Below are positions 5,967 to 64,000 of a DNA stretch of 64,000 nt, one piece after another (position 1 is the stretch's first letter; every line of letters starts with the position of its first letter). Source of the stretch: a bacterium (GTDB taxonomy: Bacteria > Margulisbacteria > WOR-1 > O2-12-FULL-45-9 > XYB2-FULL-48-7); contig JBDRLW010000008.1 in NCBI GenBank assembly GCA_043812655.1, forward strand, positions 3,198 to 67,197, in the 5' to 3' direction. Made by a program: the position numbers and the translations under genes. The notes below the pieces were generated by a model. It did not search any database, was not told where the DNA came from, and saw only the letters and a list, made by a program, of their open reading frames with translations.

Positions 5967-6683
5967 ATGAATAAATTAGATTTATCAGTTTCTATTCCGA
6001 CCTACAACGAAGCCAAGAACATTGAAACGATGATCATTCGTGTCCATGATGCTTTGCGCGCCCACGGGATAAATGAAGAGATCATTATTGTTGACGACAG
6101 CTCGCCCGATGGGACTGCAGCACTGGCCGAAAAAATGTCCAAAGATTATCCGGTTAGAGTTTATGTTAGGACCAAACGCGAAGGCCCCGGTCCCGCCATT
6201 ATGGATGGGATCAGACTGGCGCAAGCTCCGGTTTCCTGCACCATGGATGGAGACCTAAGCCACCCCCCCGAAGCGCTCCCTGAAATGTATAAGCTGATCA
6301 AATCAGGCCAAGCGCCCCTCGTTATCGGTAGCCGCCATGTTAAGGGAGGCGGCACTTCCAAGTGGATCTGGTATCGCAAATTTTTCTCCTGGGGAGCCCG
6401 GCAATTAGGTCGGCTGCTGACCCCGGTTCACGATTTAACCTCTGGATTTTTCATGTTCGACAAAAAGATCTTGCAAGGAGCAACGATCGATCCTATCGGT
6501 TGCAAAGTTGGACTTGAATTGATGGTCAAAGGGAAACACAAGGGCAAAGTCATCGAATATCCAATTATCTTCTCCGAACGGGCGGCCGGTGAAAGTAAAA
6601 TGGGTTGGCGTGAAACCAAACACTATCTTTACCATCTTGGCTCTCTCCTGCTTTGGAAAACGGCTAACATTTTCAAAAGATGA
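5967..6683 (+). CDS. GT2 polyprenyl-phosphate sugar transferase (ArnC/DPM1-like)
   Basis: GT-A fold, DxD (VDDSSPDG), about 238 aa. Classic partner that makes the lipid-linked donor for GT83 enzymes. Confidence 0.7.
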   Translation: MNKLDLSVSIPTYNEAKNIETMIIRVHDALRAHGINEEIIIVDDSSPDGTAALAEKMSKDYPVRVYVRTKREGPGPAIMDGIRLAQAPVSCTMDGDLSHPPEALPEMYKLIKSGQAPLVIGSRHVKGGGTSKWIWYRKFFSWGARQLGRLLTPVHDLTSGFFMFDKKILQGATIDPIGCKVGLELMVKGKHKGKVIEYPIIFSERAAGESKMGWRETKHYLYHLGSLLLWKTANIFKR

Positions 6684-16998: not shown

Positions 16999-18537
16999 AT
17001 GAACATTTGGCTATTGTTAGCAATTACAACTTTGTTACGGCTCTGTCTGGCGTCGCTTTTCCCTATCACCGCCGATGAATCATACTATTGGCTCTGGTCA
17101 AAGCATTTAAGCCTTTCTTATGTCGATCATCCGCCAATGGTGGCGGTCGTTAATTGGCTTTTCACCCACGGGACAGAAAACCTGATCATGCTCCGTCTGG
17201 GGACGGCAATAATTTCATTTTTGGTTAGCCTGCTCATCTATTTCCTAGCGAAAGAAGTTTTCAATGAAAAAGTCGCTTTCTGGTCGGTGGTCCTGTTCCA
17301 AATCCTTCCCCACTTCGTCGTCATCTGGTTGACGCAATTTGTCGAACTCCCGCTCGCTTTATTCTGGACTTTATCATTATTGATTCTGGCAAAAATATTC
17401 AATTTTTCCCATCCATCTTCTCCGAACCCCCAAATCCGAACTCCTAACTTATTATGGCTCGCGCTCGGCCTCACCATCGGCCTGGGTTCCCTTAGCAAAT
17501 ACACCATGTTCCTCTTCTGGCCGTGTCTTGGATTATTCTTTATTCTCTCTCCCGAAAACCGTTTCTGGCTTAAGCGAAAAGAACTTTACCTATGCCTTCT
17601 CCTAAGCCTATGCTTTTTTTCTCCAGTATTGATTTGGAATAACAACCATGCCTGGGCATCGTTTCTCTTCCATGGCAGTAAAGCTAGTGGAGATGCGTGG
17701 GGAACAAATTTTCTCCCCTTTGTTGGCGATCAATTAGTACACTTTACGCCTTTCCTTATTTTTACTCTTTTTGCTGTCGCTAAATCCTTCTTTCCAACTA
17801 ACAAACTAATGGCTCGACAAGCCCTTCGGCAAGCTCAGGGCAACATCGAGCGGAGTCGAGATGCTCGCCATCCCAGCCATCCCGAGCTCCGTCGAGGGAC
17901 AAACCAACAAACCAACCAACTCCCCCTCCTCCTCGCCTCGTTCTCCTTCCCCATCCTCTGCCTTTTCCTTTTCCTAAGCCTTAAGGTCAAGGTCTGGGCC
18001 CACTGGCCGGAGATCGGTTATATTGCGGCCATTCCCTTAACAATTAATTACTTAATTGAAAAGAATAAATCATTAAATAAATTCATTACTTGGATTGCAG
18101 GCTTCACCGGTTTAGTTCTAATTATTCTATTTTGGGTCACGCCAGCCATTCTCTTACATCAGAAAGATTACCTGGCTAATTATCAATTAACCAATTCAAT
18201 CCCCAAAGAGTATAAGCTCTTTGCCAAAACCAATGTCTCTTCGTCTCTCCTTGAGTTTTATACCAAGCGACCGGTTTATATGGCCACCGGTTTTTTAAAA
18301 GAGAACCATCTCTGGGGCGAAAAACAGTATGAACTCTGGGGAATTCCCAATTTAGTTAAAGGGGAAACTGTCATATATTATGGTGATGATACCCCTTTCT
18401 TTCAAGAAAAAGCCAAAACTAATTTCAGAAGCATTACAGAATTACCGGTTAAATTGTATTTAATTGAGGATTATATTACTAATAATTATAAGATGTTTAA
18501 ACTAGAAGGTTATAAAAGATCCGCTTCTCACCCTTAG
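16999..18537 (+). CDS. GT83/PMT_2 family membrane glycosyltransferase (ArnT-like), paralog 5
   Basis: ADESYYWLWSKHLSLSYVDHPPM motif. Carries in-frame repeat inserts R3 (17417-17448) and R4 (17803-17915). Confidence 0.65.
   Translation: MNIWLLLAITTLLRLCLASLFPITADESYYWLWSKHLSLSYVDHPPMVAVVNWLFTHGTENLIMLRLGTAIISFLVSLLIYFLAKEVFNEKVAFWSVVLFQILPHFVVIWLTQFVELPLALFWTLSLLILAKIFNFSHPSSPNPQIRTPNLLWLALGLTIGLGSLSKYTMFLFWPCLGLFFILSPENRFWLKRKELYLCLLLSLCFFSPVLIWNNNHAWASFLFHGSKASGDAWGTNFLPFVGDQLVHFTPFLIFTLFAVAKSFFPTNKLMARQALRQAQGNIERSRDARHPSHPELRRGTNQQTNQLPLLLASFSFPILCLFLFLSLKVKVWAHWPEIGYIAAIPLTINYLIEKNKSLNKFITWIAGFTGLVLIILFWVTPAILLHQKDYLANYQLTNSIPKEYKLFAKTNVSSSLLEFYTKRPVYMATGFLKENHLWGEKQYELWGIPNLVKGETVIYYGDDTPFFQEKAKTNFRSITELPVKLYLIEDYITNNYKMFKLEGYKRSASHP
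17417..17448. repeat. R3 repeat in frame in GT83 paralog 5
   Basis: tcttctccgaacccccaaatccgaactcctaac encodes SSPNPQIRTPN. Confidence 0.7.
17803..17915. repeat. R4 repeat (long form, about 110 bp) in frame in GT83 paralog 5
   Basis: aacaaactaATGGCTCGACAAGC...TCGCCATCCCAGCCATCCCGAGCTCCGTCGAGGGAcaaaccaacaaacc with a 41-bp internal segment absent from the other copy. Confidence 0.75.
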
Positions 18538-18543
18538 CTTTTT

Positions 18544-18672
18544 GCCCTCATCCGCTGGCGCTAAAGACTCCCCCTTCTCCCATAGGGAGAAGGGAACACA
18601 GCAAGACTAGACGTGCAAATTACCCTCTCCCTTTGGGAGAGGGGGAAAGGTTAACGTTGGCTGGGTGAGGGC
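18544..18672. repeat. R1 composite MITE-like element between convergent genes
   Basis: gccctcatccgctggcgc box, two CCYTCTCCC-NNN-GGGAGARGG hairpins, terminal gggtgagggc. Confidence 0.8.
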
Positions 18673-18679
18673 TAAAGGC

Positions 18680-19588
18680 TTAAATATTCCCGGTATAAAC
18701 GTATTTCAATCCGGCTTCCAACCCAATCTCCTTGGCCTTAATAACGGTTTCCCTCGGAGTTGCCGGCCGGTCAAGCATTTTATAAGTGGGGTAAAAAGCC
18801 GAAACGTGCCAAGGAACATCATCGCCAAGATCGTTCTTAATAAAGCTGGCAATTTCCGTTAATTCTTCATTTGAATCATTCAAACCGGGAATAATCAAAG
18901 TCGTCAGCTCGATCCAGATCTTAAGATTCCTCATTAATTTAATCGTGTCTAAAACCGGCTGCAGTCGCCCACCACAATATTTTTTATAGTAATCGTCACT
19001 GAACGACTTCAGATCAATATTCGCCGCGTCAAGATATGGAGCGATCATTTTAGTCGGTTCCGGATTAGAATAGCCATTGGTCACAAAAATATTTTTCAGG
19101 CCCTTCGCGTTAGCAAGTTTAGCGCAATCATAGGCAAATTCAAAAAATATTGTCGGTTCGGTATAAGTATAGGAGATGCTCTGGCAATCGTTATCAATCG
19201 CTGCCTTAACAATTTCTTCCGGCGTTGTCTCTATGCCGCCAATTCCCCCCTCATCCCATCGTCCCCTCGTCTCATCGTCCTTTCGTCCTTTCGTTGCTTT
19301 CGAGATCCCAAAGTTTTGGCAGAAATCACAGCGGAAATTACAACCAACCGTTGCAATTGAATATGACCTTGTTCCCGGCAAAAAATGGTTGAGGGGCTTC
19401 TTCTCGATCGGATCAATAGCGGCTGAAATAACTTTACCGTAAACTAAGCTGTATAAAACACCCTTTTGGTTTTCCCTAACCCCACAAATCCCTCGTTTCC
19501 CATCAGCAATCAAACAATTATGCGGACAAAGTAAACACTGGACCCTGGACTCTGGACCCTGGACCCTATAAAAAAGTGCTTCCCTCAT
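18680..19588 (-). CDS. AmmeMemoRadiSam-system radical SAM enzyme (AmrS-like)
   Basis: VQCLLCPHNC N-terminal Cys cluster plus GCNFRCDFCQN radical SAM motif. Contains two in-frame inserts: R2 at the N-terminus and a 20-aa low-complexity insert. Confidence 0.7.
   Translation of the reverse strand: MREALFYRVQGPESRVQCLLCPHNCLIADGKRGICGVRENQKGVLYSLVYGKVISAAIDPIEKKPLNHFLPGTRSYSIATVGCNFRCDFCQNFGISKATKGRKDDETRGRWDEGGIGGIETTPEEIVKAAIDNDCQSISYTYTEPTIFFEFAYDCAKLANAKGLKNIFVTNGYSNPEPTKMIAPYLDAANIDLKSFSDDYYKKYCGGRLQPVLDTIKLMRNLKIWIELTTLIIPGLNDSNEELTEIASFIKNDLGDDVPWHVSAFYPTYKMLDRPATPRETVIKAKEIGLEAGLKYVYTGNI
19539..19568. repeat. R2 repeat (CTGGACCCTGGAnyCTGGACCCTGG) in frame in the AmrS N-terminus
   Basis: Encodes YRVQGPESRVQ, directly before the conserved CLLCPHNC. 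Confidence 0.7.
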
Positions 19589-20871
19589 TCACAGCCGCAG
19601 TTGCCGCCGCATTCGCACTCGCCGGCAAATTGGTCAAAAACTTTATCAAAAGCGATCGGTGATTGCTCCGCCGTCTTCATGTTTTTGAGAAGACCCAAGC
19701 CCGATTTAAGTTCTTCTTCACCAATGATATAAACATATTCCGCCTTCATTCGATCCGCACTTTTCATCTGTGCTTTGAGTGACTTGCCAAGATAATCAAG
19801 ATCGGCCGATAAACCTAAACTCCGCGCCTTCGTCACCAAATTAAACCCTAACTTCCTTGCTTCGTCTCCAAGGGTAGCAATATATAATTGTAATTTACCT
19901 TCATTTTCCATTTTTAATTTTTCATTTTTCATTATTTCCACGACTCGCTCAAGCCCCACCGCAAACCCGATCGCCGGAACTTTTTTCCCGCCCAGCTCTT
20001 CAACCAGGTTATCGTAGCGTCCCCCACCGCAGACAGCATTTTGCGCTCCCAAACTCTTGGAAACAATTTCAAAGGCCGTTTTGGTGTAATAATCTAAACC
20101 ACGGACCAAGCGCTTGTTTATCATGTGTTTTACTAACAAACTATCCAACAAACTAACTAACCGACTAAAATGCGTCTTACATTCTTCGCATAAATGATCG
20201 ACAGAAGCTGGAGCCTTTTCCAAATATTTCTGGCAATGCGCTTCTTTGCAGTCAAGGATCCTTAACGGATTTAACTCCACCCGCTCCTGACAATCGGCAC
20301 ACATGTCTTTAATATGTTCTTTAAAGTATTTTTGAATCGCGGCGCGATATCCCGGCTGGCAAACGGAACAGCCGACCGAATTAAGATTAACCGATAAGTC
20401 TTTCAGCCCGATCATTGAAAACAAATTAACAGCTAATTGGATCACTTCGGCATCAAGGAGCGGATCGGTCGAACCAAAAACCTCAACTCCCGCCTGGTGG
20501 AATTGCCGCTGGCGTCCGGCTTGCGGCCGTTCATAACGGAACATCGGTCCGATATAATAAAGCTTTGTTAAATTATCGGTTGAGATCAAATTGTTTTCTA
20601 AAGCCGCCCGAACAACCGGAGCTGTCTCTTCTGGACGCAGGGTTAAACTCCTCCCCTTACGGTCAGGGAAAGTGTACATCTCTTTTTTAACAATATCGGT
20701 AGTCGTGCCAATTGAGCGGGTAAATAGGTCGGTTGATTCAAATATAGGGGTGCGGATCTCCTGATAATTGTAAACGCCAAAGAGCGACCGGCAGCTCTCT
20801 TCCACAAACTGCCAAAGGGGCGTTTCGGCGGGAAGAATATCTTTTGTGCCACGGGGTGCTGTATATTTCAT
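19585..20871 (-). CDS. hisS: Histidine--tRNA ligase
   Basis: Class II aaRS motifs and MKYTAPRGTKDILP as in the HisS N-terminus. The long ORF is trimmed to the ATG at 20871 because the upstream 100 aa overlap thiF and are not HisS-like. Confidence 0.85.
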   Translation of the reverse strand: MKYTAPRGTKDILPAETPLWQFVEESCRSLFGVYNYQEIRTPIFESTDLFTRSIGTTTDIVKKEMYTFPDRKGRSLTLRPEETAPVVRAALENNLISTDNLTKLYYIGPMFRYERPQAGRQRQFHQAGVEVFGSTDPLLDAEVIQLAVNLFSMIGLKDLSVNLNSVGCSVCQPGYRAAIQKYFKEHIKDMCADCQERVELNPLRILDCKEAHCQKYLEKAPASVDHLCEECKTHFSRLVSLLDSLLVKHMINKRLVRGLDYYTKTAFEIVSKSLGAQNAVCGGGRYDNLVEELGGKKVPAIGFAVGLERVVEIMKNEKLKMENEGKLQLYIATLGDEARKLGFNLVTKARSLGLSADLDYLGKSLKAQMKSADRMKAEYVYIIGEEELKSGLGLLKNMKTAEQSPIAFDKVFDQFAGECECGGNCGCE

Positions 20872-26545: not shown

Positions 26546-27106
26546 ATGGCCAAACCAACTATTATTCTCGCTTCCGCCTCACCCAGAAGAAAAGAATTAT
26601 TAAAACGCTTAGTTGATAATTTCACGGTCATCCCCAGCAGTGTCGATGAAAAACTGATCACTGCCCCTACGCCGGAAGAGCTGGCAGAAAAGACGGCTCT
26701 TGCTAAAGCCAACGATGTCGCCAAAAATGAAAAAGATGCCATTGTGATAGGAGCCGACACAATTGTAATTCTTGGCGATATTATCCTGGGCAAGCCGAAA
26801 GATAATGACGAAGCCTATTTGATGCTTAAAAGTTTATCCGGCACTACCCATAAGGTTGTAACTGGTCTGGCAGTTATTGATACTAAAACCGGCAAAACAC
26901 AAAGCACTTATGTTGTCTCCCAAGTCAAGATGAAAAATGTTTCTGATCAAGCGATCAAAGATTATATTAGCACCGGCAGTCCCTTAGATAAAGCCGGTGG
27001 TTACGGCGTCCAAGAGATCGAAGACGCGTTTATGGCCAAGATCGATGGCGATCTTGATAATGTCGTTGGTTTACCAGTCAAAACTTTAAAGGAGATGCTG
27101 AAATGA
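26546..27106 (+). CDS. maf: Maf-like nucleoside triphosphate pyrophosphatase
   Basis: ILASASPRRKELL N-terminus and Maf-family length (186 aa). Confidence 0.8.
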   Translation: MAKPTIILASASPRRKELLKRLVDNFTVIPSSVDEKLITAPTPEELAEKTALAKANDVAKNEKDAIVIGADTIVILGDIILGKPKDNDEAYLMLKSLSGTTHKVVTGLAVIDTKTGKTQSTYVVSQVKMKNVSDQAIKDYISTGSPLDKAGGYGVQEIEDAFMAKIDGDLDNVVGLPVKTLKEMLK

Positions 27107-27663
27107 AAACCATTTGGAAACCGGGTACGATGATCTATCCTGTCCCTGCCGTTTTGGTCACTTGCGGTGATAGTCCCGAAAATTACAACATCATCACCAT
27201 TGCCTGGACCGGGACGATCTGTTCCGAACCGGCCATGAGTTATATTTCGATCCGCCCTTCCCGCCATTCTTATGAGATCATAAAACGAACTAAAGAATTT
27301 GTTATTAACCTAACAACGGAAAGATTAGCCAAGGCAACCGACTTTTGCGGCGTTAAATCTGGTCGGGATATAGATAAATTTAAACATTTAAAATTAACGC
27401 CGGAGCCAGCGACAAAAGTCAAAGCCCCGTTGATCGCCGAAAGTCCGCTTAACATTGAATGTCAGGTGACAGATCTTATCCCACTCGGCTCGCACGATAT
27501 GTTTATAGCCAAAGTCCTTTGTATTCATGCCGACAAAGATTATCTGGATAAACATGGCGCCTTCATGTTCAGCAAGACCAAACCGATCGCTTACGTCCAC
27601 GGCAAATATTATTCACTCGGAAAAGAGTTGGGCCATTTCGGGTATTCGGCCAGGAAAAAGTAA
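27103..27663 (+). CDS. Flavin reductase-like FMN-binding protein
   Basis: Flavin_Reduct-like domain (YPVPAVLVTCGD...AWTG). ATGA overlap with maf. Confidence 0.6.
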   Translation: MKTIWKPGTMIYPVPAVLVTCGDSPENYNIITIAWTGTICSEPAMSYISIRPSRHSYEIIKRTKEFVINLTTERLAKATDFCGVKSGRDIDKFKHLKLTPEPATKVKAPLIAESPLNIECQVTDLIPLGSHDMFIAKVLCIHADKDYLDKHGAFMFSKTKPIAYVHGKYYSLGKELGHFGYSARKK

Positions 27664-27762
27664 CCTCTCCCCGTCACTCACTTCGTTCGTGCCACCCCTC
27701 TCCATGAAATGGAGAGGGGAATGAATTCTCCGATGAAATCGGAGAAGAAAGGGGTGAGGGTG
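27664..27762. mobile_element. R1 MITE-like element (97 bp) with terminal inverted repeats
   Basis: ctccccgtcactcacttcgttcgtgccaCCCCTCTCCatgaaatGGAGAGGGGaatgaattctccgatgaaatcggagaagaaaGGGGTGAGGG. About 90% identical to the intragenic copy at 47989-48081. Confidence 0.75.
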
Positions 27763-27801: not shown

Positions 27802-27960
27802 ATGGCAATCATCGAAGAATCAGAATATAAAGGCAAACCGGTTTTAGTTATCAAGCGGGACGAGAATGACAAATACCCGTTTTCGTTCGGGATCAGCAAA
27901 GCAAAATTGATGATCGAAAATCTGGAAGCGATCAAAAAGTTCGTCGAAAAGAACGGCTAA
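27802..27960 (+). CDS. Unannotated small protein (52 aa) flanked on both sides by R1 repeat elements
   Basis: ATG at 27802 preceded by AAGGAGA with 7-nt spacing; encodes MAIIEESEYKGKPVLVIKRDENDKYPFSFGISKAKLMIENLEAIKKFVEKNG. Falls below the 60-aa cutoff of the ORF track. Confidence 0.3.
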   Translation: MAIIEESEYKGKPVLVIKRDENDKYPFSFGISKAKLMIENLEAIKKFVEKNG

Positions 27961-27967
27961 GATTTAG

Positions 27968-28124
27968 ACCCTCACCCGCTAATGCTTAAGACTCCCCCCT
28001 CTCCCATAGGGAGAGGGTAACTCGCTTGTTTTATGTTTTATTTTTATACCCCCTCTACCTCCCTGCCTGCCGGCAGGCAGGTGGGAGAGGGGGTGCTATT
28101 GTTTGGCGTTGACGGGGGTGAGGG
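27968..28124. mobile_element. R1 composite element containing a nested R6 palindrome
   Basis: Runs accctcaccc...cccctctcccatagggagaggg...cctgcctgccggcaggcagg...gggggtgagggc, with TIR-like ends. Confidence 0.75.
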
Positions 28125-28135
28125 CTGTGAGGTTT

Positions 28136-29537
28136 TTACATCACCGGCAGGTTCGAGCTTCCCATTAAATATTCGTCTACCGCTCTGGCGGCTTTACGGC
28201 CTTCGGATATTGCCCAGACTATAAGTGATTGGCCTCGTCTCATATCACCAGCGGCAAATATTCCCTTAATGGAAGTCATATAATTTTGATTAGTTTTGAA
28301 GTTTCCCCGCTGATCAAGCTCGATCTTTAGATCAGCGATCGGTTCGGGATGTAAGAAACCTAAGGCCAGAAAAACCAGGTCGGCTTCTATCGTAAATTCA
28401 GAGTGAGGTATTTCTTTCAAATTCAGATCAACTTTTACACATTGCAATTTCTGGACCCTGGATCCTGGACCCTGGAATTCTTTTGTCGCAATCGACCACT
28501 GCCGTTCACAGCCTTCTTCATGACTGCTGGAAGTCTTAAGGATTAGCGGATACTTTGGCCATGGCTGGTCAACCGGCCGAGTTTCGCTTGGCTGCGGCAA
28601 GAGTTCTATTTGTACCACACAACTGGCCCCTTGGCGCTGAGCGGTTCCTACACAGTCTGAACCTGTATCACCCCCACCGATCACCACCACTTTTTTTCCT
28701 TTAGCATCAATTAATGAGTTCGTTGGTATTTTTTCTCCGGCAATTGTTTTATTGGCTTGGGTCAGATATTCCATCGCAAAGTAAACACCTTTGAGTTCCC
28801 GGCCGGGAGCTTTTAAGTCGCGGGGAATTCTGGATCCTCCGGCAAAGACAATTGCCTCAAATTCTTTTTGGAGCTTAGAAACAGGATAATCATCACCTAT
28901 CTTAATTTTAGTTTTAAAAGTGATCCCCTCTTCTTCCCAGATCTTGGTCCGACGATCGATGACTTTCTTTTCCAGCTTAAAATCAGGGATGCCGTAGCGC
29001 ATGATCCCGCCCAGTTTTTCGTCTTTTTCAAATACTGTAACACTATGGCCCGCTTGATTTAATTGCGCGGCGCAAGACAGTCCAGCTGGGCCAGAGCCAA
29101 CAACCGCTACTTTTTTACCGGTCGTAACTTTAGGCTGTCTGGCCTTGATCTGGCCGTGATCGAACATTTCTTCAACTATCCCCAATTCATTTTCCCTGAT
29201 CGTCACCGGGTCATCGTTGATCCCCAAGACACAAGAAAATTCGCACGGCGCCGGGCAAACTCGGCCGGTGATCTCTGGCAGATTATTGGTCGCGTCAAGG
29301 AGTTCCCAAGCTCTTTCCCACGATTTTACCGACGTCAGGTCATTCCACTCCGGGATATAATTACCAAGAGGACAGCCGCCATGGCAGAATGGGGTCCCGC
29401 AATCCATACAGCGGGTGGCCTGTTCCGCCGTCTCGTCTTCCGACCTAAGTTTAAAAACCCGGTCGAAATCTTTTACCCGCTCGCAAACCGGGCGGTAAGC
29501 GGTTTTGGTCCTTTTTATTTTTATGAACCCCTTTGGA

Positions 29538-29545
<8 letters not shown>
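28136..29545 (-). CDS. gltD: Glutamate synthase (NADPH) small subunit
   Basis: N-terminal Fe-S Cys motifs and GSGPAG FAD/NAD fold. Immediately downstream of gltB. Carries an in-frame R2 repeat insert. Confidence 0.85.
28450..28474. repeat. R2 repeat in frame in gltD
   Basis: ctggaccctggatcctggaccctgg encodes FQGPGSRVQ. Confidence 0.7.
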
Positions 29546-33947
<4,402 letters not shown>

Positions 33948-45476: not shown

Positions 45477-46205
45477 TTATAAATTAATATCCAACTGCGT
45501 GGTTAGCGTTGGTTTCGCCCCATTGTTATATTTGCCATAAGCACAGAGAACAGAGGTATTCGCTGAAAATGCGTATGAAAAACCGGCAAACAAGGCACCA
45601 AGTGACGAGTCGCCTCCAGCATAATCAACCGAAGCCCATATTTTATCGGTCAGCATTTTATCCCAAGTTAAAATAACACCCGCTCCGTCAGAGCCTAAAG
45701 TAGTTTTATTTCCCGCAAAGTAGCCAGCCGATATTCGGCCAAAGCTAAAGGTTTTTGCCCCAACACCATAAAGAATATTTTGGTCGGTCGCCCCTTTAAG
45801 CAAACCAAAGCCATACCCACCAACCGCTAAAGCCGGGAAAATATCGCTTTCAGCAATCCCATATTTAGCATTAAAAACCAAAGAACTTCCGGCCACTCCC
45901 TGGGGCAGAAAGGCATCAGCTCCAATTTCAACTCCCGAAATTACACCATAAGTTAAACCCAGGTCGGTCGGAAATTGCTGGCCGCCAGAACCCTTATCTT
46001 CAACTGAAAAATAATCATCAATCCCCAGATGCCATGTCCCCTTCGCCTGGATATCGGTCGACGGATTCCAGATCTGGGTCGACGGCGTCGCCAGCGCAGC
46101 CCCTCCCACTAACAAACTAACCAACAAACAAATGGCTCGACAAGCTCGCCATCCCAGCCATCCCGAGCTCCGTCGAGGGACTAACAGACTTTTCATGATT
46201 TTCAT
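45477..46205 (-). CDS. Putative outer-membrane porin co-transcribed with amt-glnK
   Basis: Signal peptide then alternating amphipathic beta-strands. Start trimmed to the ATG at 46205 (AAGGAGGG SD). An R4 repeat copy is translated within the signal-peptide region. Confidence 0.4.
   Translation of the reverse strand: MKIMKSLLVPRRSSGWLGWRACRAICLLVSLLVGGAALATPSTQIWNPSTDIQAKGTWHLGIDDYFSVEDKGSGGQQFPTDLGLTYGVISGVEIGADAFLPQGVAGSSLVFNAKYGIAESDIFPALAVGGYGFGLLKGATDQNILYGVGAKTFSFGRISAGYFAGNKTTLGSDGAGVILTWDKMLTDKIWASVDYAGGDSSLGALFAGFSYAFSANTSVLCAYGKYNNGAKPTLTTQLDINL
46108..46185. repeat. R4 repeat (short form) in the porin gene signal-peptide region, translated from the opposite strand
   Basis: ctaacaaactaaccaacaaacaaATGGCTCGACAAGCTCGCCATCCCAGCCATCCCGAGCTCCGTCGAGGGActaaca. 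Same plus-strand orientation as the 17.8-kb copy, but the host gene is on the minus strand. Confidence 0.75.
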
Positions 46206-46313: not shown

Positions 46314-47039
46314 TTATTGTAGGCCGAATATTTCGGGCAGGGTCCGTTTGTGTTCGCTAGCAGCTTGACGTTTTCTTATTAGTTCGATCTTATCTTTGGC
46401 AATCCCTTTGTCATTACCGGAAAGGAACTGGTCGAGTTCATCGTAAGTGATCCCCATCTCACTTTCATCTGTCTGCCCTGCCCAAAGACCGGCGCTCGGC
46501 GCTTTATCAATAATTTCTTTTGTGACGCCTAATTCTTGAGCCAAAGCCCTCACGTCTTTCTTTAAAAGATTCCCTAACGGCAAAAGGTCAACTCCCCCAT
46601 CGCCATATTTCGTAAAATAGCCCATTTCCAGTTCCGACCTGTTCCCCGTCCCGATCACTAAATAATTTAGTTGGCTGGCAAAATAATAAAGGGTCGTCAT
46701 CCGCAGTCTTGGTTTAATGTTGGCGATACTTAGGTCTTTCTGACCGCTATATGGCTTGCCTTCAAAGACACCAAACAATGAGTCAAATGAAGTAGACAGG
46801 TCAATCTCTTTGATTTTCAGATCAATTCGTTGCGCAAATTCTTTGGCATGATCAATATCGACCGCTAAACTGTGGCAAGGAAGAATTAACGCTAAAGTAT
46901 TTTGAGGAAAAACTTTTTTGCAAAGGAGCGCCACCACCGCAGAGTCAATTCCGCCGGAAAGTCCTAAAATACAACCTTTGGCTCCGGCTGCCTCAACCTT
47001 TTGTTTGATCCAATTAGAAATTTTTTCTGATCTATTCAT
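46314..47039 (-). CDS. nadE: NH3-dependent NAD+ synthetase
   Basis: GLSGGIDSAVV PP-loop, 241 aa. Confidence 0.85.
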   Translation of the reverse strand: MNRSEKISNWIKQKVEAAGAKGCILGLSGGIDSAVVALLCKKVFPQNTLALILPCHSLAVDIDHAKEFAQRIDLKIKEIDLSTSFDSLFGVFEGKPYSGQKDLSIANIKPRLRMTTLYYFASQLNYLVIGTGNRSELEMGYFTKYGDGGVDLLPLGNLLKKDVRALAQELGVTKEIIDKAPSAGLWAGQTDESEMGITYDELDQFLSGNDKGIAKDKIELIRKRQAASEHKRTLPEIFGLQ

Positions 47040-48451
47040 TGTAGTAAATTATGGATCGCCTTGGCCGCCCGTTTGCCGTCGCCCATGGCGGAGATAACGG
47101 TCGCGGCGCCGCGGACAATGTCGCCTCCGGCGTAAACCGCGGGGATCGAGGTCGCACCCTCCGGAGTAATGACCACGCCTCCCCACTTTTCGGTTTTGAG
47201 ATTTGGGGTACGCATCGGGACAAGCGGATTAGGAGAATTACCGATCGCCACGATCACTGTGCCAATTTGCAGTTTGAAGTTTGAGTTTGGAATCTCGACC
47301 GGCCTCCGTCGGCCGCTAGCATCGGGTTCGCCTAATTCCATCCGCAAACATTCCGCTTCAGCCACCCACCCATCACTATTAGGCAAATACTTGACCGGCA
47401 AAGTTAAATTCTTAAAAATTATCCCCTCTTCTTCCGCCCGTTTTACCTCTTCGATCCTGGCCGGCATCTCTGCCTGGGTCCGCCTATATATAATGTAAAC
47501 TTCTTTGGCCCCCAAGCGAAGAGATACCCTGGCCGCGTCCATCGCCACGTTGCCGCCGCCAACAACCGCGACTTTTTCACCGACTTTGACCGGCGTTAAA
47601 TATTCGGGGAACTTATAGGCCTTCATCATGTTGACCCGAAAAAGATATTCATTAGCGGAGTAAACCCCCTGGAGATTCTCGCCGGGAATATTCATGAATT
47701 TTGGCAAGCCGGCACCCGAGCCGATAAACACTGCTTGATAATTTTTTAACAATTCTTCGATCGTTAAGACATTACCGATCAGCATGTCAGTTTCAACTTT
47801 AACCCCAAGTGTTTTAACATATTCAACTTCAAGATTCACGATCTCTTTGGGCAAACGGAATTGCGGGATCCCGTATGTCAAAACGCCGCCCGTTACGTGA
47901 AGCGATTCAAAGATCGTCACTTGATACCCTAACCTAGCTAGATCGCCAGCGCACGTTAACCCCGCCGGCCCCGACCCGATTACTGCAACCCTCACCCCGT
48001 CACTCACTTCGTTCGTGCCACCCCTCTCCACTTTGTGGAGAGGGGAATGAATTCCGACGAAGTCGGAAGAAAGGGGTGAGGCCTTGTCCGCCACAAACCT
48101 CTCTAGGCTCCCGATCGCGATCGGCTCGCCCTTAACGCCCAACACACACTTTGCCTCGCATTGTTCTTCTTGGGGACAAACTCTACCGCAAACAGCGGGG
48201 AGAGCATTGGTCTCTTTAATTTTTTTCGCCGCTCCGGCAAAATCTCCTTGGGCCGCTAATTTTAGAAATCCGGGAATATCGACTTCGACTGGACAGCCGC
48301 TAACGCAAAGCGGTTTCTTGCATTGGATGCATCTTTTAGCTTCAGCGATCGCTTGTTCTACGGTAAAGCCTTGCGGCACTTCCTCAAAATCACGGATCCG
48401 CTCCGCTACCCCCCGCTCCGCCATATGTTGTCTTTTTGGTTTTTCAATCAT
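47036..48451 (-). CDS. GltD-like NADPH oxidoreductase beta subunit (NfnB/SudA-type)
   Basis: N-terminal Fe-S Cys motifs and two Rossmann GxGxxG folds. Paired with an NfnA/PyrK-like gene. Contains a 93-bp in-frame R1 insert. Confidence 0.7.
   Translation of the reverse strand: MIEKPKRQHMAERGVAERIRDFEEVPQGFTVEQAIAEAKRCIQCKKPLCVSGCPVEVDIPGFLKLAAQGDFAGAAKKIKETNALPAVCGRVCPQEEQCEAKCVLGVKGEPIAIGSLERFVADKASPLSSDFVGIHSPLHKVERGGTNEVSDGVRVAVIGSGPAGLTCAGDLARLGYQVTIFESLHVTGGVLTYGIPQFRLPKEIVNLEVEYVKTLGVKVETDMLIGNVLTIEELLKNYQAVFIGSGAGLPKFMNIPGENLQGVYSANEYLFRVNMMKAYKFPEYLTPVKVGEKVAVVGGGNVAMDAARVSLRLGAKEVYIIYRRTQAEMPARIEEVKRAEEEGIIFKNLTLPVKYLPNSDGWVAEAECLRMELGEPDASGRRRPVEIPNSNFKLQIGTVIVAIGNSPNPLVPMRTPNLKTEKWGGVVITPEGATSIPAVYAGGDIVRGAATVISAMGDGKRAAKAIHNLLQ
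47989..48081. mobile_element. R1 MITE-like element (93 bp) inserted in frame within the nfnB/gltD-like CDS
   Basis: CCTCACCCC...GGGGTGAGG terminal inverted repeats. Encodes an extra KASPLSSDFVGIHSPLHKVERGGTNEVSDGV just before the conserved VAVIGSGPAG. Confidence 0.8.
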
Positions 48452-48465
48452 TTTACTTTTTTATA

Positions 48466-48591
48466 CCCTCACCCAGTACCGCTGAACCTTTCCCCCTCTC
48501 CCAAAGGGAGAGGGTAATTCCCTTTTCCTCTCCGCGTTTTACCTTCTCCCTCTGGGAGAAGGGGGCGTCTTTTGCGCCAGCGGATGAGGGC
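48466..48591. repeat. R1 composite element in the nfnA-nfnB intergenic space
   Basis: accctcaccc box, ccctctcccaaagggagaggg and ccttctccctctgggagaaggggg hairpins, gcgccagcggatgagggc box (reverse complement of the box at 18544). Confidence 0.8.
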
Positions 48592-48593
48592 TA

Positions 48594-49427
48594 TTATAAT
48601 CCCAACAGCTTGCACACATGGTCCGAGGCTCTCTTTTCCACATCCTTAAACCCGCGCAGCCTGGCTGTTAACTCATTAAAATCAACTTCGTGCCCGTCAA
48701 ACTCCGGCCCGTCAACACAGGCAAATTTTATCTTGCCGCCGACGGTAACCCGGCATACCCCGCACATCCCGGTCGCGTCAAGCATTAAAGGGTTAAGTGA
48801 AACGACAGTCTTGATCCCAAAAGGTTTGGTCACATCACAACAAACTTTCATCATCGGCACCGGCCCAACGGCCACCACTTCGTCAATCTTTTTGCCGGAA
48901 GCTATCAAGTCTTTTAGCACATCAGAAACGAATCCCTTGCGCCCGTATGACCCATCGTCCGTTGTAACCAACAACTTCGCACTAATGACTGACAGCTCGT
49001 TTTCATAAATCAAGAGAGCTTTATTCCTCGCCCCGATAATTGTAATGACTTCAGTCCCGGCATTTTTCAACGCTTTGACTAAAGGATATATTTCAGCGAT
49101 CCCAACCCCGCCGCCGATCACCACCACGCAACCATTTTCAACTATATGCGAAGGGGTGCCGAGCGGACCTAAAAGATGTGCGAGCTCATCCCCAGCTTTT
49201 AAGGAATTCAACACCTGGGTCGTCCCCCCAACGATCTGGAAAATAATCGTAATGGTCCCAGCCGTTAAATCGCTGTCGGCGATCGTTAATGGGATCCGTT
49301 CGGCTGTCTCCGTTGGGACAACAATGACAAACTGCCCCGCCTTTGCCGACTTGGCAATATGAGGCGCTTCGATCGTTACCCGGGAAATTGTTTCGTTGAT
49401 CTTTTCCTTTTTTACTATTTTAGCCAT
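48594..49427 (-). CDS. NfnA/SudB/PyrK-like FAD/NAD(P)-binding [2Fe-2S] electron-transfer subunit
   Basis: Ferredoxin-NADP-reductase-like fold with C-terminal Cys residues (CGVCRV...C). Start trimmed to MAKIVKKE at 49427. Confidence 0.65.
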   Translation of the reverse strand: MAKIVKKEKINETISRVTIEAPHIAKSAKAGQFVIVVPTETAERIPLTIADSDLTAGTITIIFQIVGGTTQVLNSLKAGDELAHLLGPLGTPSHIVENGCVVVIGGGVGIAEIYPLVKALKNAGTEVITIIGARNKALLIYENELSVISAKLLVTTDDGSYGRKGFVSDVLKDLIASGKKIDEVVAVGPVPMMKVCCDVTKPFGIKTVVSLNPLMLDATGMCGVCRVTVGGKIKFACVDGPEFDGHEVDFNELTARLRGFKDVEKRASDHVCKLLGL

Positions 49428-49452
49428 TTGTTTAGATTTGATTATAACAGAA

Positions 49453-50364
49453 TCAATATCTTGGGACAAACATCCGCCTTTGTCTGGCGGCATCTTGGAA
49501 ATTGATCCTTTTATCTTCACCTTTACTCGATAATATTTCCGTTTGAAAAGAGATGGAAAACACATTATTGATCGCACCTGTAATATTGTCTCTAAAATAG
49601 GCGGCGTAATCAAAGTTATACCCTCCTAACTCAACTCCTACTCCATAAGTCCTCAGATTTTGATCAAACCCCGCCCTTAGCGCCAAGATCTTCATAGGCT
49701 GCCACTCGATCCCAGAATAACTAATTGGCGTTTGGTCTTTAATGGTCGGAAAACTGTCTTGGGCAAAATATAACTTTAAATCCTGTCCAGCCAACTCTTT
49801 TAGAGAATTTTTCTGGCCTAAAAGGTTGACCACTGCTCCATTTTTCCAAACAGCCGGGTGGCCAGTCATTTCGATCGATTTTTGAATGGCTGTACCAAAT
49901 GTTAACCACCGGTTTAATTTAAAAATTAGTCCTAAGTCCAGCTCTTTGCCAACCCCCCCCCCATGATCCTTGTAACTGATCCCTGCCATAAATCTCTTAA
50001 GTTCAACGCTATAAGCTAAAATCGCGGCCTTATTATCGTAGTTGCCCGACTGGCCCGAAGCAGTAAGGCCCGCACTAAAAATCCCGTAATCTGTCGGGTA
50101 AGCTGTCGCAATGGTCAGATAACGATAATCATTAGGCAGATCTCCATATAATAAACAGCTTTGCCATTTAGTGATCGCTGCTATTCCAGCCGGATTGGAA
50201 TAAAGCGCGCCAACATCGTCAACTTGTCCCACAAAAGCTTTCCCCAACCCCAAGGCTCTGGCACTTAAAGGAAAAGTAGCGGGATCGGGGACTTTAGTTT
50301 GCGCCAATGAAATTACAGAAGTAAAAATAAATAATGTTAAGACAACAAAAAAGCTTTTTTTCAT
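49453..50364 (-). CDS. Outer-membrane beta-barrel protein (FadL/PorV-like N-terminal motif)
   Basis: Signal peptide; GLGKAFVGQVDDVGALYSNPAGIA resembles the FadL/PorV family N-terminus. Confidence 0.4.
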   Translation of the reverse strand: MKKSFFVVLTLFIFTSVISLAQTKVPDPATFPLSARALGLGKAFVGQVDDVGALYSNPAGIAAITKWQSCLLYGDLPNDYRYLTIATAYPTDYGIFSAGLTASGQSGNYDNKAAILAYSVELKRFMAGISYKDHGGGVGKELDLGLIFKLNRWLTFGTAIQKSIEMTGHPAVWKNGAVVNLLGQKNSLKELAGQDLKLYFAQDSFPTIKDQTPISYSGIEWQPMKILALRAGFDQNLRTYGVGVELGGYNFDYAAYFRDNITGAINNVFSISFQTEILSSKGEDKRINFQDAARQRRMFVPRY

Positions 50365-61079: not shown

Positions 61080-61097
61080 GTGGTGTGAAGCGATTTT

Positions 61098-61736
61098 TTA
61101 GAAGAACGCCATCCTGGCTCCAGCGGCTAGGATAAAGCCATCGAGCGGCAATGAATTACCGCTGCTATCCTTAATGCTGGTCCGCAAATAATTGATCTGG
61201 GCAAAAGCTCCGGTATCTGGGCCAAGGCCAAATTCGATCCCTGTCCCGATCTGGGCGCCAAATCCGGCAAAACTTGAAGGGGAATTAAGTTTAACTTCGC
61301 TGGATTTATTGGCTGTATAGTAGTTGGCTTCGGCATCCAAATAAAGATTGGCGATACCATGGGCGCTGGAATCCCCCCAACTAAGAACATACATTCTAGC
61401 TCCATAGCCAAACCTTAAAATTGAATAAGTCGCGTTAAGCGTGGTCCCCTGGTCATTATTAAATGACGATAGGCCAAATCTAGGTCCAGTATCTAAGTTC
61501 TGGTTTAATCTAGCGTCGAACTCAAGCCCAAGATCATACGCTGTAGTTTTTGTCGCCAAAACATCCCTGTTGGGAGAGATCATACTTAACCTTACCCCCA
61601 ATCTATAGGACTTTTTCTGAGACATCGCCAATAGATCTTTCGTTGAAACCGTGCTTGTCCCTTCGATCGCGTAAGCCGGAACTATCGCCGCTAAACTTAA
61701 AACAAAAACCGCCAACAAAGTAAGGACCTTTTTCAT
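61098..61736 (-). CDS. Small outer-membrane beta-barrel protein (OmpW/OmpA-like), tandem paralog 1
   Basis: Signal peptide and C-terminal ...ARMAFF aromatic terminus. About 50% identical to the neighbouring paralog. Confidence 0.5.
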   Translation of the reverse strand: MKKVLTLLAVFVLSLAAIVPAYAIEGTSTVSTKDLLAMSQKKSYRLGVRLSMISPNRDVLATKTTAYDLGLEFDARLNQNLDTGPRFGLSSFNNDQGTTLNATYSILRFGYGARMYVLSWGDSSAHGIANLYLDAEANYYTANKSSEVKLNSPSSFAGFGAQIGTGIEFGLGPDTGAFAQINYLRTSIKDSSGNSLPLDGFILAAGARMAFF

Positions 61737-61802
61737 AACTACTCCTCCTTAAATGGAATGTTGGGATTATTATACTAAAGTACCATTCGTCTAGCAAGCG
61801 TT

Positions 61803-62456
61803 TTAGAAAAAGGCCATCCTGCTGCCAACCGTCAAAACTAAGCCGTCAAGAGGCAAAGTATGACTGCTTATGTCGTTTATGCTGGTGCGCAAATAATCGA
61901 TCTGGGCAAAAGCTCCGGTATTCGGCCCGAAAGTAAACTCAAGCCCCACCCCCGCTTGAACCCCAAGCCCGGCAAAACTGGCAGGGGAAATAGCCAGCGC
62001 GGTTGAGTCTTTGATCTTATTAGCGGCAAAATAATTAACTTCCCCGGCAAAATAGAGGTTAGCAAACCCATGAAGACTGGAATGGTCGCTCCAGTTAATA
62101 GCATAAAGCTTGGCGCCATAACCAAACCTGATGATCTGATATGAAGCATTTAGCGTTGTTCCCTGGTCATTGACACAAGAGGCAATACCAAACCGCGGGC
62201 CGGTATCAAGATTTTCATTGAACTTAAAATCAAATGCAAGCCCAATGTCATAAGCAGGGATCTTGGTCGCCAATATATCGCTAGCCGGAGAGATCATGCT
62301 GACTTTAACCCCTAATCCAAGATTTTTTCTTTGGGCTAATGTTAATAATTCTTTTGTTGAAACTGTAGTTGTCCCTTCAAGCGCATAAACAGGGACAAGA
62401 CTTATTCCTCCTAAAATAAAAATAGTAAGGGAACACAACCAAAAATACTTTCTCAT
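61803..62456 (-). CDS. Small outer-membrane beta-barrel protein, tandem paralog 2
   Basis: Signal peptide and C-terminal ...SRMAFF. Paralogous to 61098-61736. Confidence 0.5.
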   Translation of the reverse strand: MRKYFWLCSLTIFILGGISLVPVYALEGTTTVSTKELLTLAQRKNLGLGVKVSMISPASDILATKIPAYDIGLAFDFKFNENLDTGPRFGIASCVNDQGTTLNASYQIIRFGYGAKLYAINWSDHSSLHGFANLYFAGEVNYFAANKIKDSTALAISPASFAGLGVQAGVGLEFTFGPNTGAFAQIDYLRTSINDISSHTLPLDGLVLTVGSRMAFF

Positions 62457-63670: not shown

Positions 63671-63726
63671 GCCCTCACCCCGTCCGCCTACGGCGGACTG
63701 CCCCTCTCCCATAGGGAGAGGGGCGG
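63671..63726. repeat. R1 element copy
   Basis: gccctcaccccgtccgcctacggcggactgcccctctcccatagggagaggggcgg. Confidence 0.75.
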
Positions 63727-63728
63727 TT

Positions 63729-63992
63729 TTACATTGCCACCGGTAAAGGACTAATAGCCTCCTTAATTTTTTCTAAAACAATATTACTATTGTCTTCAAT
63801 TTCCTGATTAGTAATCCTGATAAAATAAACGGACTTTGCTTCTATCTCCTGTTGCCTGACTTCGTCATATTCACGATGCATCCTATTTTCATGGATACTC
63901 CCATCGATCTCAATTGCCAATCTTTTCTCTGGACAATAAAAATCAACCACAAAGCCTTCGATTACATGCTGTCTACGAAACTTTAAACCCAT
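63729..63992 (-). CDS. DUF559 / Vsr-like endonuclease-domain protein (N-terminus probably beyond the window end)
   Basis: VVDFYCPEKRLAIEIDGSIH...IRITNQEI matches the DUF559 core (DFyc...l.iE.DG..H). Confidence 0.5.
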   Translation of the reverse strand: MGLKFRRQHVIEGFVVDFYCPEKRLAIEIDGSIHENRMHREYDEVRQQEIEAKSVYFIRITNQEIEDNSNIVLEKIKEAISPLPVAM

Positions 63993-64000
63993 AAAACTCC

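Follow-up and report, generated by a model that had tools for sequence, protein, structure and literature searches.

A modular palindromic repeat lies in frame at the inter-domain linker of an nfnB-type gene in Margulisbacteria and shares its ends with a DUF559-bearing element

We analysed a stretch of 64,000 nucleotides (the window; contig JBDRLW010000008.1, positions 3,198 to 67,197, assembly GCA_043812655.1) from a genome of the Margulisbacteria lineage WOR-1, in which a short palindromic repeat element, here called R1, lies inside a gene for an NfnB/GltD-type oxidoreductase. An earlier note on this DNA had read the element as a very recent insertion, resembling a miniature inverted-repeat transposable element (MITE), into an essential redox enzyme. 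The features on which the analysis turns are as follows, in window positions:

47036-48451, minus strand: nfnB/gltD-type gene, encoding 471 residues with Fer4_20 and FAD/NADPH oxidoreductase domains.
47990-48081, plus strand, antisense to the gene: R1 element in nfnB, 92 bp from one terminal inverted repeat (TIR) to the other.
Outer left part of this copy: TIR CCTCACCCC, then hairpin A, GTCACTCACTTCGTTCGTGCC.
Middle of this copy: hairpin B, CCCCTCTCCAC-TTT-GTGGAGAGGGG, then AATGAAT.
Right part of this copy: hairpin C, TCCGAC-GAA-GTCGGA, then AGAAA, then TIR GGGGTGAGG.
27664-27759, plus strand: second R1 copy, 96 bp, intergenic.

The repeat element with 9-bp TIRs claimed for nfnB was confirmed, with CCTCACCCC at 47990-47998 and its reverse complement GGGGTGAGG at 48073-48081, and the TIR motif occurs 9 times in the window compared to 0.43 expected. 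The element had been given as 93 bp (47989-48081); it is 92 bp long, the C at 47989 being extra. The open reading frame (ORF) at 47036-48451 stays open across R1, with no stop codon and the frame kept. The reported count of 31 in-frame codons holds, and the residue string reported for them was shifted by one residue: the R1-encoded peptide corresponds to NfnB residues 124-154, (A)SPLSSDFVGIHSPLHKVERGGTNEVSDGVR. Folded as a single strand, R1 reaches -50 to -53 kcal/mol (z -5.3 and -6.3). The second copy begins immediately past the stop codon of the ORF at 27103-27663, with an ATG 43 nt downstream of the copy (27803), and ends at 27759 instead of the 27762 given before. Its A module is the same as in the nfnB copy, and its B and C hairpins are changed with compensation (GAC/GTC to GAT/ATC, and a stem longer by 2 bp). 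A 31-nt core is the same in both copies, a match that none of 100 shuffles gave; their identity is 91% over 65 nt, close to the 90% claimed for the pair, and 87% in a global alignment. A search of the window with an R1 family profile (nhmmer) returned these two full copies and no others (E 1.8e-24 and 1.5e-21), and a scan of the window against Rfam gave no family at the gathering threshold, with a chance snoRNA match (E 0.74) on R1. Across the family, R1 copies have 2.74 open frames each compared to 2.03 in shuffles, and the window copy has 2 of 6; this excess is modest, and we do not claim that R1 is designed to be coding.

The host protein has its best PDB matches in Thermotoga maritima NfnB (4YLF_B, 3.8e-158) and Pyrococcus furiosus NfnI (5JCA_L), and NfnI and NfnB also rank top in a Foldseek search with its structural model. 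Its N-terminal domain carries two Cys clusters and is followed by FAD and NADPH Rossmann domains; an NfnA-like gene adjoins. All relatives at 70-80% identity come from Margulisbacteria, Saganbacteria or WOR-1. All columns that do not vary among 112 homologues are conserved in the window protein, which therefore looks functional at the level of its sequence. Pfam places Fer4_20 at residues 18-124 and Pyr_redox_2 at residues 154-459, so that R1 exactly spans the inter-domain gap, in agreement with the linker position between the Fe-S domain and the GSGPAG motif proposed earlier.

R1 is edged by FVAD-K on one side and by VAVIGSGPAG on the other, and the W-E-R start of the linker, almost universal in homologues, is missing. 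The homologues are 455-479 residues long, comparable to the 471 of the window protein. Because the protein length is ordinary and the W-E-R start is missing, R1 substitutes for the native linker and is not a net addition, contrary to the earlier view of 31 codons added to an intact protein; the predicted R1 peptide is a replacement of the native 19-26-residue linker. Segments of similar length do occur at this position in unrelated taxa, which the earlier note had named as evidence against an insertion: from FVAD to VAVVG the linker measures 19 residues in T. maritima NfnB and 26 in P. furiosus NfnI. These segments are unrelated to R1 in sequence, and the origin of the window segment from the element is not in doubt. 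The true gltD of the window (28136-29545; with an adjoining 1469-residue ORF it spans 28136-33947) has a usual linker of about 26 residues. An AlphaFold model built with 112 close homologues (mean pLDDT, the predicted local distance difference test score, 69) shows residues 123-153 as coil that lacks secondary structure, at pLDDT 31-40. Such a prediction fits a flexible linker, which may lie exposed as the surface loop envisaged before, in a model that is weak overall.

We next consider the R1 family, which was scanned for in one genome per species with an exact pattern that fixed hairpin B plus AATGAA. The core pattern was found at 45 loci, almost all in metagenome-assembled genomes (MAGs) of Margulisiibacteriota, Saganbacteria or WOR-1, with up to 12 loci in one MAG and 3-4 in others. 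Full copies are 74-136 bp long, consist of hairpins only and lack coding capacity of their own; they follow a common plan of TIR, hairpin A (variable), hairpin B, AATGAAT, hairpin C (variable), AGAAA and TIR. The TIRs, AGAAA and the CGTC-adjacent ends are nearly invariant although they lay outside the search pattern. The pair CCTCACCCC...GGGGTGAGG bounds nearly all of 42 copies, and one copy (L031) has the compensated variant CCTCTCCCC/GGGGAGAGG. CGTC stands directly 3' of the left TIR (CCTCACCC-CGTC-) in most copies, excepting those with an A3-type left module. In 32 of 41 copies, hairpin C pairs as a perfect Watson-Crick stem 5 bp long or longer, compared to 4% of shuffles. It has 24 distinct best-stem left arms (at least 14 being stems of at least 5 bp), mostly a GAA loop and no G:T pairs; the copies without a perfect stem hold nested insertions in the loop. 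The A and C variants are found in many combinations, which implies that R1 is a mosaic. Moreover, hairpin B is found with its loop in either complementary form (TCTTTGA in 7 copies and TCAAAGA in 5; TCGAAGA in 6 and TCTTCGA in 3; and others), implying that short inverted repeats mediate inversion ("flip-flop"). The term "MITE-like" is fair for such a small, TIR-bounded, multicopy, non-coding repeat.

The distribution of the family bears on whether the segment in nfnB is an ordinary fast-evolving, low-complexity linker whose likeness to intergenic DNA is convergent or gene-derived. The linker is indeed hypervariable across the clade, and many of its variants are rich in K, S, Q and N. However, an exact 31-nt core is shared with an intergenic site where none is expected, more than 40 copies in at least 15 MAGs have the same TIR limits in unrelated contexts, and R1 copies carry no flanking nfnB sequence. 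The shared core and the TIR-bounded dispersed copies refute this explanation, to which we give practically no weight.

The same site in NfnB is occupied by R1 in other genomes. R1 lies there in the forward orientation, opposite to the window, at L001, L002, L008 and L048, and in the window orientation at L040, a Saganbacteria locus whose NfnB is 69% identical to that of the window in protein and 64% in DNA. We also weighed whether an assembly or binning artefact had misjoined the repeat into the gene. The DNA comes from a MAG, assemblies are often broken or wrongly joined at repeats, and many contigs with DUF559 genes (see below) are only 1-2 kb long. By contrast, R1 is in frame and free of stops with continuous coding flanks on both sides, and six or more independent assemblies, drawn from NCBI, ENA and JGI, have the site occupied, which makes an artefact very improbable. 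A short contig, L011 (CAZSXD010000172, 1984 bp), holds an NfnB/GltD-type N-terminal fragment with an R1-like forward element in the linker (FAADYEI followed by ASPRPSATPLHEMERGNANKPTQTEKSGVR) and a second R1 copy about 400 bp from it.

The junctions are conserved among these alleles. On the right, GGGGTGAGG is followed by [AG]T[TCAG] GC in all R1-bearing NfnB genes, read as GVR and then I/V-A. On the left, GAY-NNG-G followed by CCTCACCCC is the same in the window, L040 and L048, and the other R1-bearing alleles keep WE, WER, WERE or WERES before R1. In protein terms the window and L040 have in common FVAD-x, then ASP...GVR, then [IV]AV, and L048 has the same junctions around an R1 oriented the opposite way to that of the window. 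Same-site R1 copies are 74-82% alike, except for the pair L001-L002 (89%), and each is 84-98% like some dispersed copy, reaching at least 90% for 5 of 9 tested. No copy is identical to that of the window, which reaches 95% with an intergenic one of another MAG; nfnB coding DNA is 64-73% identical between these genomes. An unusual nested C module in L040 recurs in an intergenic copy of the same genome (L010). This pattern of likeness speaks for module exchange among copies or repeated re-colonisation, and against both simple vertical descent and one recent jump.

A simple recent MITE transposition, in which a transposase moved a 93-bp element into an intact nfnB linker and added 31 codons, would account for the TIRs, the small size, the multiple copies, the A/T-rich flanks and the 95% identity with a copy in another genome, and a larger element with the same ends exists. 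Yet the protein is not longer than its homologues and lacks the native WER... linker. The same junctions recur in L040, whose DNA is 64% identical, and flank an oppositely oriented R1 in L048, so that the "very recent" age once proposed was not borne out. Moreover, the sole near-isogenic occupied/unoccupied pair (described below) differs by a replacement patch with converted flanks and not by a clean insertion. No target-site duplication was detected either, with lengths of 1-10 nt considered on 41 copies; the longest flank matches are 1-3 nt and inconsistent. An identical single flanking base is present at 19 of the 41 copies compared to 36% expected (p = 0.12), and the flanks are A/T-rich. 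Clean transposition is thus not supported by any target-site duplication, and we regard this explanation as distinctly unlikely. A 1-nt target-site duplication had been entertained as the reason why in-gene copies have a length of 2 modulo 3; it was rejected, the cause being the frames at the two TIRs, which in genes read SP... and ...GVR, with TGA in one frame of the right TIR.

Across 120 NfnB homologues the linker is hypervariable and often resembles translated repeat DNA of several families. Variants include PLSQRERG, which matches CCCCTCTCCCAAAGGGAGAGGG, EPRRSAAGS, and the heptamer-derived NPKSEIRNKS. At the DNA level, one linker is a palindromic heptamer array and another a short CCTCACCCC-plus-hairpin element. 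All close NfnB pairs, 92-99.8% identical outside the linker, have unrelated linkers, and the linker has been replaced wholesale in every lineage examined. NfnB linkers often consist of tandem heptanucleotides (L049 3371-3448; L055 about 1870-1945), such as CAGACCA twice, CTGAACA and CGGAGCA, or the palindromic GACGAGA x3 ... TCGTCCA x3; they are reminiscent of the short tandemly repeated repetitive (STRR) sequences of cyanobacteria.

The mode of replacement is best visible in L048, which carries R1, and L049, which has a heptamer-type linker, both from sediment metagenomes of one study. The two are 99.9% identical over 1.7 kb downstream and identical over about 400 nt upstream; they differ in a patch of about 143 nt that comprises the linker, five synonymous third-position changes upstream of it and five changes downstream. 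A patch with changed flanks implies a short imported tract, by homologous recombination or gene conversion, and not clean transposition. The comparison of these two contigs points to allele exchange by recombination. As an occupied-site polymorphism, the pair resembles co-conversion of flanks, which ordinary homologous recombination would produce as well. At the protein level, P0006 and P0009 are 99.8% identical elsewhere and differ in their linkers; a second pair (P0017 and P0032; 95.8% protein identity) has DNA about 88% identical throughout and is too diverged to reveal a patch.

In a neighbour-joining tree built without the linker, the R1-bearing alleles are scattered among alleles with unrelated linkers. 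This topology bears on a single ancient insertion followed by vertical descent, with deletions on the left, inversion in place and concerted evolution, and with no recombination between lineages. Such a history would fit the right junction common to all R1-bearing alleles and the left junctions, which form a nested series (W, WE, WER, WERE and WERES before R1), and the loop flip-flop shows that inversion between short inverted repeats occurs in the family. The scattering on the tree speaks against it, as do the linkers that differ in P0006 and P0009 at 99.8% identity elsewhere, the foreign synonymous sites in the patch, and the lower likeness among same-site copies than with dispersed ones. 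We therefore consider a single ancient insertion rather unlikely.

We favour with good confidence the explanation that the R1 copy in nfnB is a member of a dispersed, modular palindromic family that supplies the linker through insertion, recombination and a DUF559-derived origin. R1 is predicted to be translated as a connector of about 31 Ser, Pro, Gly and charged residues from the Fe-S domain to the FAD domain, and would be tolerated because the connector can change freely in both its length and its sequence. R1 would have arrived by insertion into the linker, followed by loss of native linker codons. R1-bearing linker alleles would then pass between lineages via homologous recombination that co-converts short coding flanks, R1 modules would be swapped with other genomic copies by short-patch conversion, and the orientation could flip through recombination between inverted repeats. 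The earlier reading is partly supported: it named the right kind of event, in which a MITE-like repeat is translated as part of a linker, and had the history wrong.

Several points weigh against the explanation that we favour. It is the intact frame from which translation through R1 is deduced. The AlphaFold model is of middling quality, with the entire stretch 84-148 at low confidence, which leaves a "disordered surface loop" weakly supported. The recombination patch is known from a single pair of metagenome contigs. The nearest relative of the window gene is 80% identical, none of the loci compared belongs to the window's own genome, and there is no strain-level empty site from which the original event might be reconstructed; inversion in situ and independent insertion in both orientations would explain the two orientations equally well. 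The conservation of hairpin B and AATGAA is partly an ascertainment effect, as both were fixed in the search pattern. Finally, the target-site duplication missing from the 41 copies counts here too, and no transposition intermediate was found.

The R1 family takes inter-domain linkers and loops in other housekeeping genes too. About 13 of 41 full copies lie in frame within recognisable genes, with Pfam domains intact on both sides; these insertions are at Pfam domain boundaries, mostly in domain linkers. The genes are:

NfnB, in five assemblies.
A HemW-type radical SAM protein, at the same site in three genomes.
A MiaB-like enzyme, between the UPF0004 and radical-SAM domains.
PriA, between the 3'BD and the helicase.
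TsaD.
NadB, between the FAD and C-terminal domains.
A PMT_2 glycosyltransferase.

The HemW proteins (L025, L046) and the MiaB-like enzyme (L029), which already contain R1, hold further in-frame repeat-like inserts (SSPYKGEELFSGHSFSPLPRGRCRAEGEAEGV; SEIRNSKSETNSKLK; EEPRRLVSGSEQS). These extra inserts of other families in R1-bearing proteins suggest that an in-frame repeat load is general in these genomes. In the window, the ORF at 6680-8689 on the plus strand contains at 7529-7566 a short element, CCTCACCCCTGTCCCCTCTCCCAAAGGGAGAGGGG, read in frame as PSPLSPLPKGEG. It separates a GT2 glycosyltransferase domain (residues 5-215) from a weak LpxB-like region (residues 438-590; Pfam 20.8 bits, just under the curated 22.6-bit cut-off), and represents another in-frame repeat or else a fusion of two genes brought about by a repeat.

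ORF-bearing units were screened for as TIR pairs 350-2600 bp apart, and among the ORFs between such pairs DUF559 is the only nuclease- or transposase-like one seen. Two units of about 0.5 kb (units in this family measure 484-499 bp), L012 and L033, lie on one Saganbacteria contig. Their homology spans exactly CCTCACCCC to GGGGTGAGG, and their flanks are unrelated. The composite consists of a TIR-A-B' block, a DUF559 ORF (PF04480, 9.5e-31 in L012) and a B-C-TIR block; a third composite, L051, is the orthologue of the L012 site. A 92-nt R1 copy in L003 corresponds to both ends of the L051 composite joined at hairpin B (27 of 28 and 58 of 61 nt), which is the relation expected of a miniature element and its parent. 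The end of the window holds a further relative:

63673-63724, plus strand: left end of a DUF559 composite, with TIR CCTCACCCC, hairpin A GTCCGCC-TAC-GGCGGAC and hairpin B' CCCCTCTCCC-ATA-GGGAGAGGGG.
63762-64000, minus strand, cut by the window end: DUF559-type nuclease ORF, 47% identical to the L012 protein.

The C-terminal end of this ORF abuts the TIR-A-B' block, as in L012, L033 and L051, and from its sequence the segment 63673-64000 is probably an ORF-bearing relative of R1 in the same genome.

The association of DUF559 with these ends extends beyond the lineage. Of 80 DUF559 proteins from databases whose extensions reach 8 residues or more, 27 have R1-type motifs translated in them, with LTPNPSP..RERG in N-terminal and PSP..GEG..GVRA in C-terminal extensions. 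In the DNA of a Dehalococcoidia MAG, CCCTCACCCC and a hairpin precede the DUF559 gene and a hairpin and GGGGGTGAGAG follow it, and this unit is inserted between a stop codon and the following ATG. From Saganbacteria to Dehalococcoidia the DNA ends are conserved, and the protein is only about 45-50% identical. A metagenome scan with the DUF559 protein gave only 4 loci, and a protein-database search was more informative. Many DUF559 proteins are encoded on contigs of 1-2 kb and annotated under unrelated names (leucyl-tRNA synthetase, cyclase, methyltransferase), as fits multicopy elements that disrupt assemblies and mislead annotation.

The DUF559 nuclease is physically associated with the repeat ends and may be what mobilises the repeats. 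R1 may be a miniature, ORF-less derivative of the DUF559 element of about 0.5 kb with the same ends. A wider proposal is that R1, the R2 elements (see below) and short CCCTCTCC-hairpin elements are all non-autonomous derivatives of widespread, apparently undescribed selfish elements of about 0.5 kb that encode DUF559 and are bounded by CCTCACCCC/GGGGTGAGG and CCCCTCTCC hairpins; we put this forward tentatively, as a possibility that falls short of an even chance. Here the nuclease would nick or cut hairpin or target DNA, and the element would be copied in by break repair, leaving no target-site duplication and co-converted flanks. Miniature forms would colonise intergenic DNA and protein linkers and so drive lineage-by-lineage linker turnover, as in NfnB. 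Published work places DUF559 in the Vsr-like PD-(D/E)xK group that includes the EDxHD homing endonucleases (PMC3424549, PMC9403480). The composite is like these homing systems (I-Bth0305I, cited in the same sources) in encoding a DUF559 protein, and the L048/L049 patch, with its co-converted flanking markers, is like a signature of homing or double-strand-break repair. By contrast with homing genes, the composite is free-standing, bounded by TIRs and hairpins, and not in an intron or intein; strict homing would not account for its copies, which are scattered over many unrelated sites.

Among known phenomena, the Rickettsia palindromic elements (RPEs) come closest, and R1 appears by analogy to match them in behaviour. 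RPEs are short palindromic multicopy repeats found between genes and in frame in unrelated housekeeping genes, to whose proteins they contribute a peptide that the fold can accommodate (Ogata et al., 2000, Science 290:347, as reported in PMC10969869 and PMC1166351); the intragenic share is given there as nearly half in three of ten families of R. conorii, and as 85 of 728 in R. felis. Like RPEs, R1 is palindromic, multicopy and in frame in unrelated conserved proteins that stay intact (about 13 of 41 copies intragenic). The likeness is one of behaviour, with no kinship in sequence expected, across phyla (Margulisiibacteriota/Saganbacteria and Alphaproteobacteria). Unlike RPEs, R1 is sharply bounded by 9-bp TIRs and is a mosaic of three hairpin modules that can be exchanged; it is shorter, at 74-136 bp compared to roughly 100-150 bp, and its copies match almost perfectly across genomes in which gene identity is about 70%. 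One protein site is occupied in both orientations with evidence of allele exchange by recombination, and there is a candidate ORF-bearing parent element. We know of no such parent for RPEs. A literature search turned up no paper on repeats in Margulisbacteria or Saganbacteria.

R1 also resembles other bacterial repeats in part. It shares stem-loop units in mosaics with repetitive extragenic palindromic (REP) sequences, including bacterial interspersed mosaic elements and the GTAG/CGTC REPs (Di Nocera et al., 2013, PMC3733652), CGTC following the left TIR of most R1 copies. REPs also occur in frame within known genes, with different REPs at about the same recB site in two Xanthomonas species, and the motif GGGGWSAS is reported in TIRs flanking "TIRYT" genes, which resemble those for REP-associated tyrosine transposases (RAYTs) (PMC3733652); the R1 TIR GGGGTGAG fits this motif. 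No RAYT or TIRYT gene was seen, no search aimed at one having been made. Unlike single REPs of 20-40 bp, R1 is a bounded unit with TIRs, and the ORF between R1-type ends is a DUF559 PD-(D/E)xK nuclease, compared to the HUH tyrosine transposase of REP systems. With bacterial MITEs (Nezha, Correia/NEMIS, ERIC; PMC10969869) R1 has in common that it is small, non-coding, TIR-bounded, multicopy and sometimes fused in frame with host ORFs, and that a longer element with the same termini exists. It differs in TIRs of 9 bp compared to the usual 15-30, in having no detectable target-site duplication and in a candidate parent without a recognised transposase.

The surroundings of nfnB contain further repeats. 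Two features lie upstream of the gene:

48466-48590, plus strand: R2 element, CCCTCACCC ... two CCCTCTCCC/GGGAGAGGG-type hairpins ... GGATGAGGG.
48594-49613, minus strand: nfnA-like partner gene, with NAD_binding_1 and DHODB_Fe-S_bind domains.

The true start of the nfnA-like gene is probably internal (MAKIVKKE...). R2 takes up the spacer between nfnA and nfnB; in L001 this spacer measures only 20 bp, and in L002 it holds a CCTCACCC motif. The R2 family (125-170 bp; ends CCCTCACCC...GG(A/G)TGAGGG) also occurs at 18533-18680 and 27957-28127, and its left half is similar to the A3 type of left module that some of the R1 copies have.

Several short tandem arrays that repeat every 7 nt lie at 5157-5181, 19538-19567, 19900-19938 and 28451-28476, and others at 17416, 25913, 20132, 46108, 59626 and 61007, with units such as CTCCCAA, CTGGACC, TTCATTT and AACAAAC-like; the array at 28451-28476 is within gltD and encodes ...QGPGSRVQ.... 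The palindrome GCGATCGC, the HIP1 sequence of cyanobacteria, has 11 sites in the window (e.g. 48345, 44482, 44590, 44923) compared to 1.2 expected, and 0 of 100 shuffles reach 11. One repeat pair, 17796-17904 and 46119-46185 (49-110 nt, 93-94% identity), is intergenic at both places and beside heptamer arrays. Another, 61096-61287 and 61801-61992 (192 nt, 72% identity), lies in the adjacent ORFs 61098-61736 and 61803-62456, which are probably tandem paralogues.

The right end of R1-type elements, AGAAAGGGGTGAGG, resembles a Shine-Dalgarno sequence. An ATG follows 0-5 nt after it in several loci, namely L012/L051 (polX), L059 (an ATP-grasp gene), L037 (nfo-like), L044, L024, L016 and L022, and is the start of a recognisable gene in three cases. 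Hairpin B contains ATG GAG AGG GGA ATG in a frame that continues into downstream ORFs. These right-end ATGs and the hairpin B frame imply N-terminal extensions, either spurious or real.

Bacteria of the Margulisbacteria and Saganbacteria type are free-living, uncultivated sister lineages of Cyanobacteria, a kinship that makes the excess of a HIP1-type palindrome worth noting. In-frame "selfish DNA" in protein genes has so far been treated mostly as a Rickettsia peculiarity, and here it occurs in another phylum. Its dynamics are unusually visible, with a linker occupied both ways and swapped between proteins that are 92-99.8% identical, and with two near-isogenic alleles that differ by a patch. 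In practice, the repeats distort ORF calls, as DUF559 proteins are "extended" through hairpins and the N-termini of neighbours lengthened, and they break metagenome assemblies. A DUF559 nuclease with the same ends across phyla would be a testable candidate enzyme for palindromic repeats of unexplained mobilisation, and the link hints at what a very large "domain of unknown function" family may do. The R1 elements thus offer a natural system for how proteins tolerate or recruit repeat-encoded peptides and for how linkers evolve.

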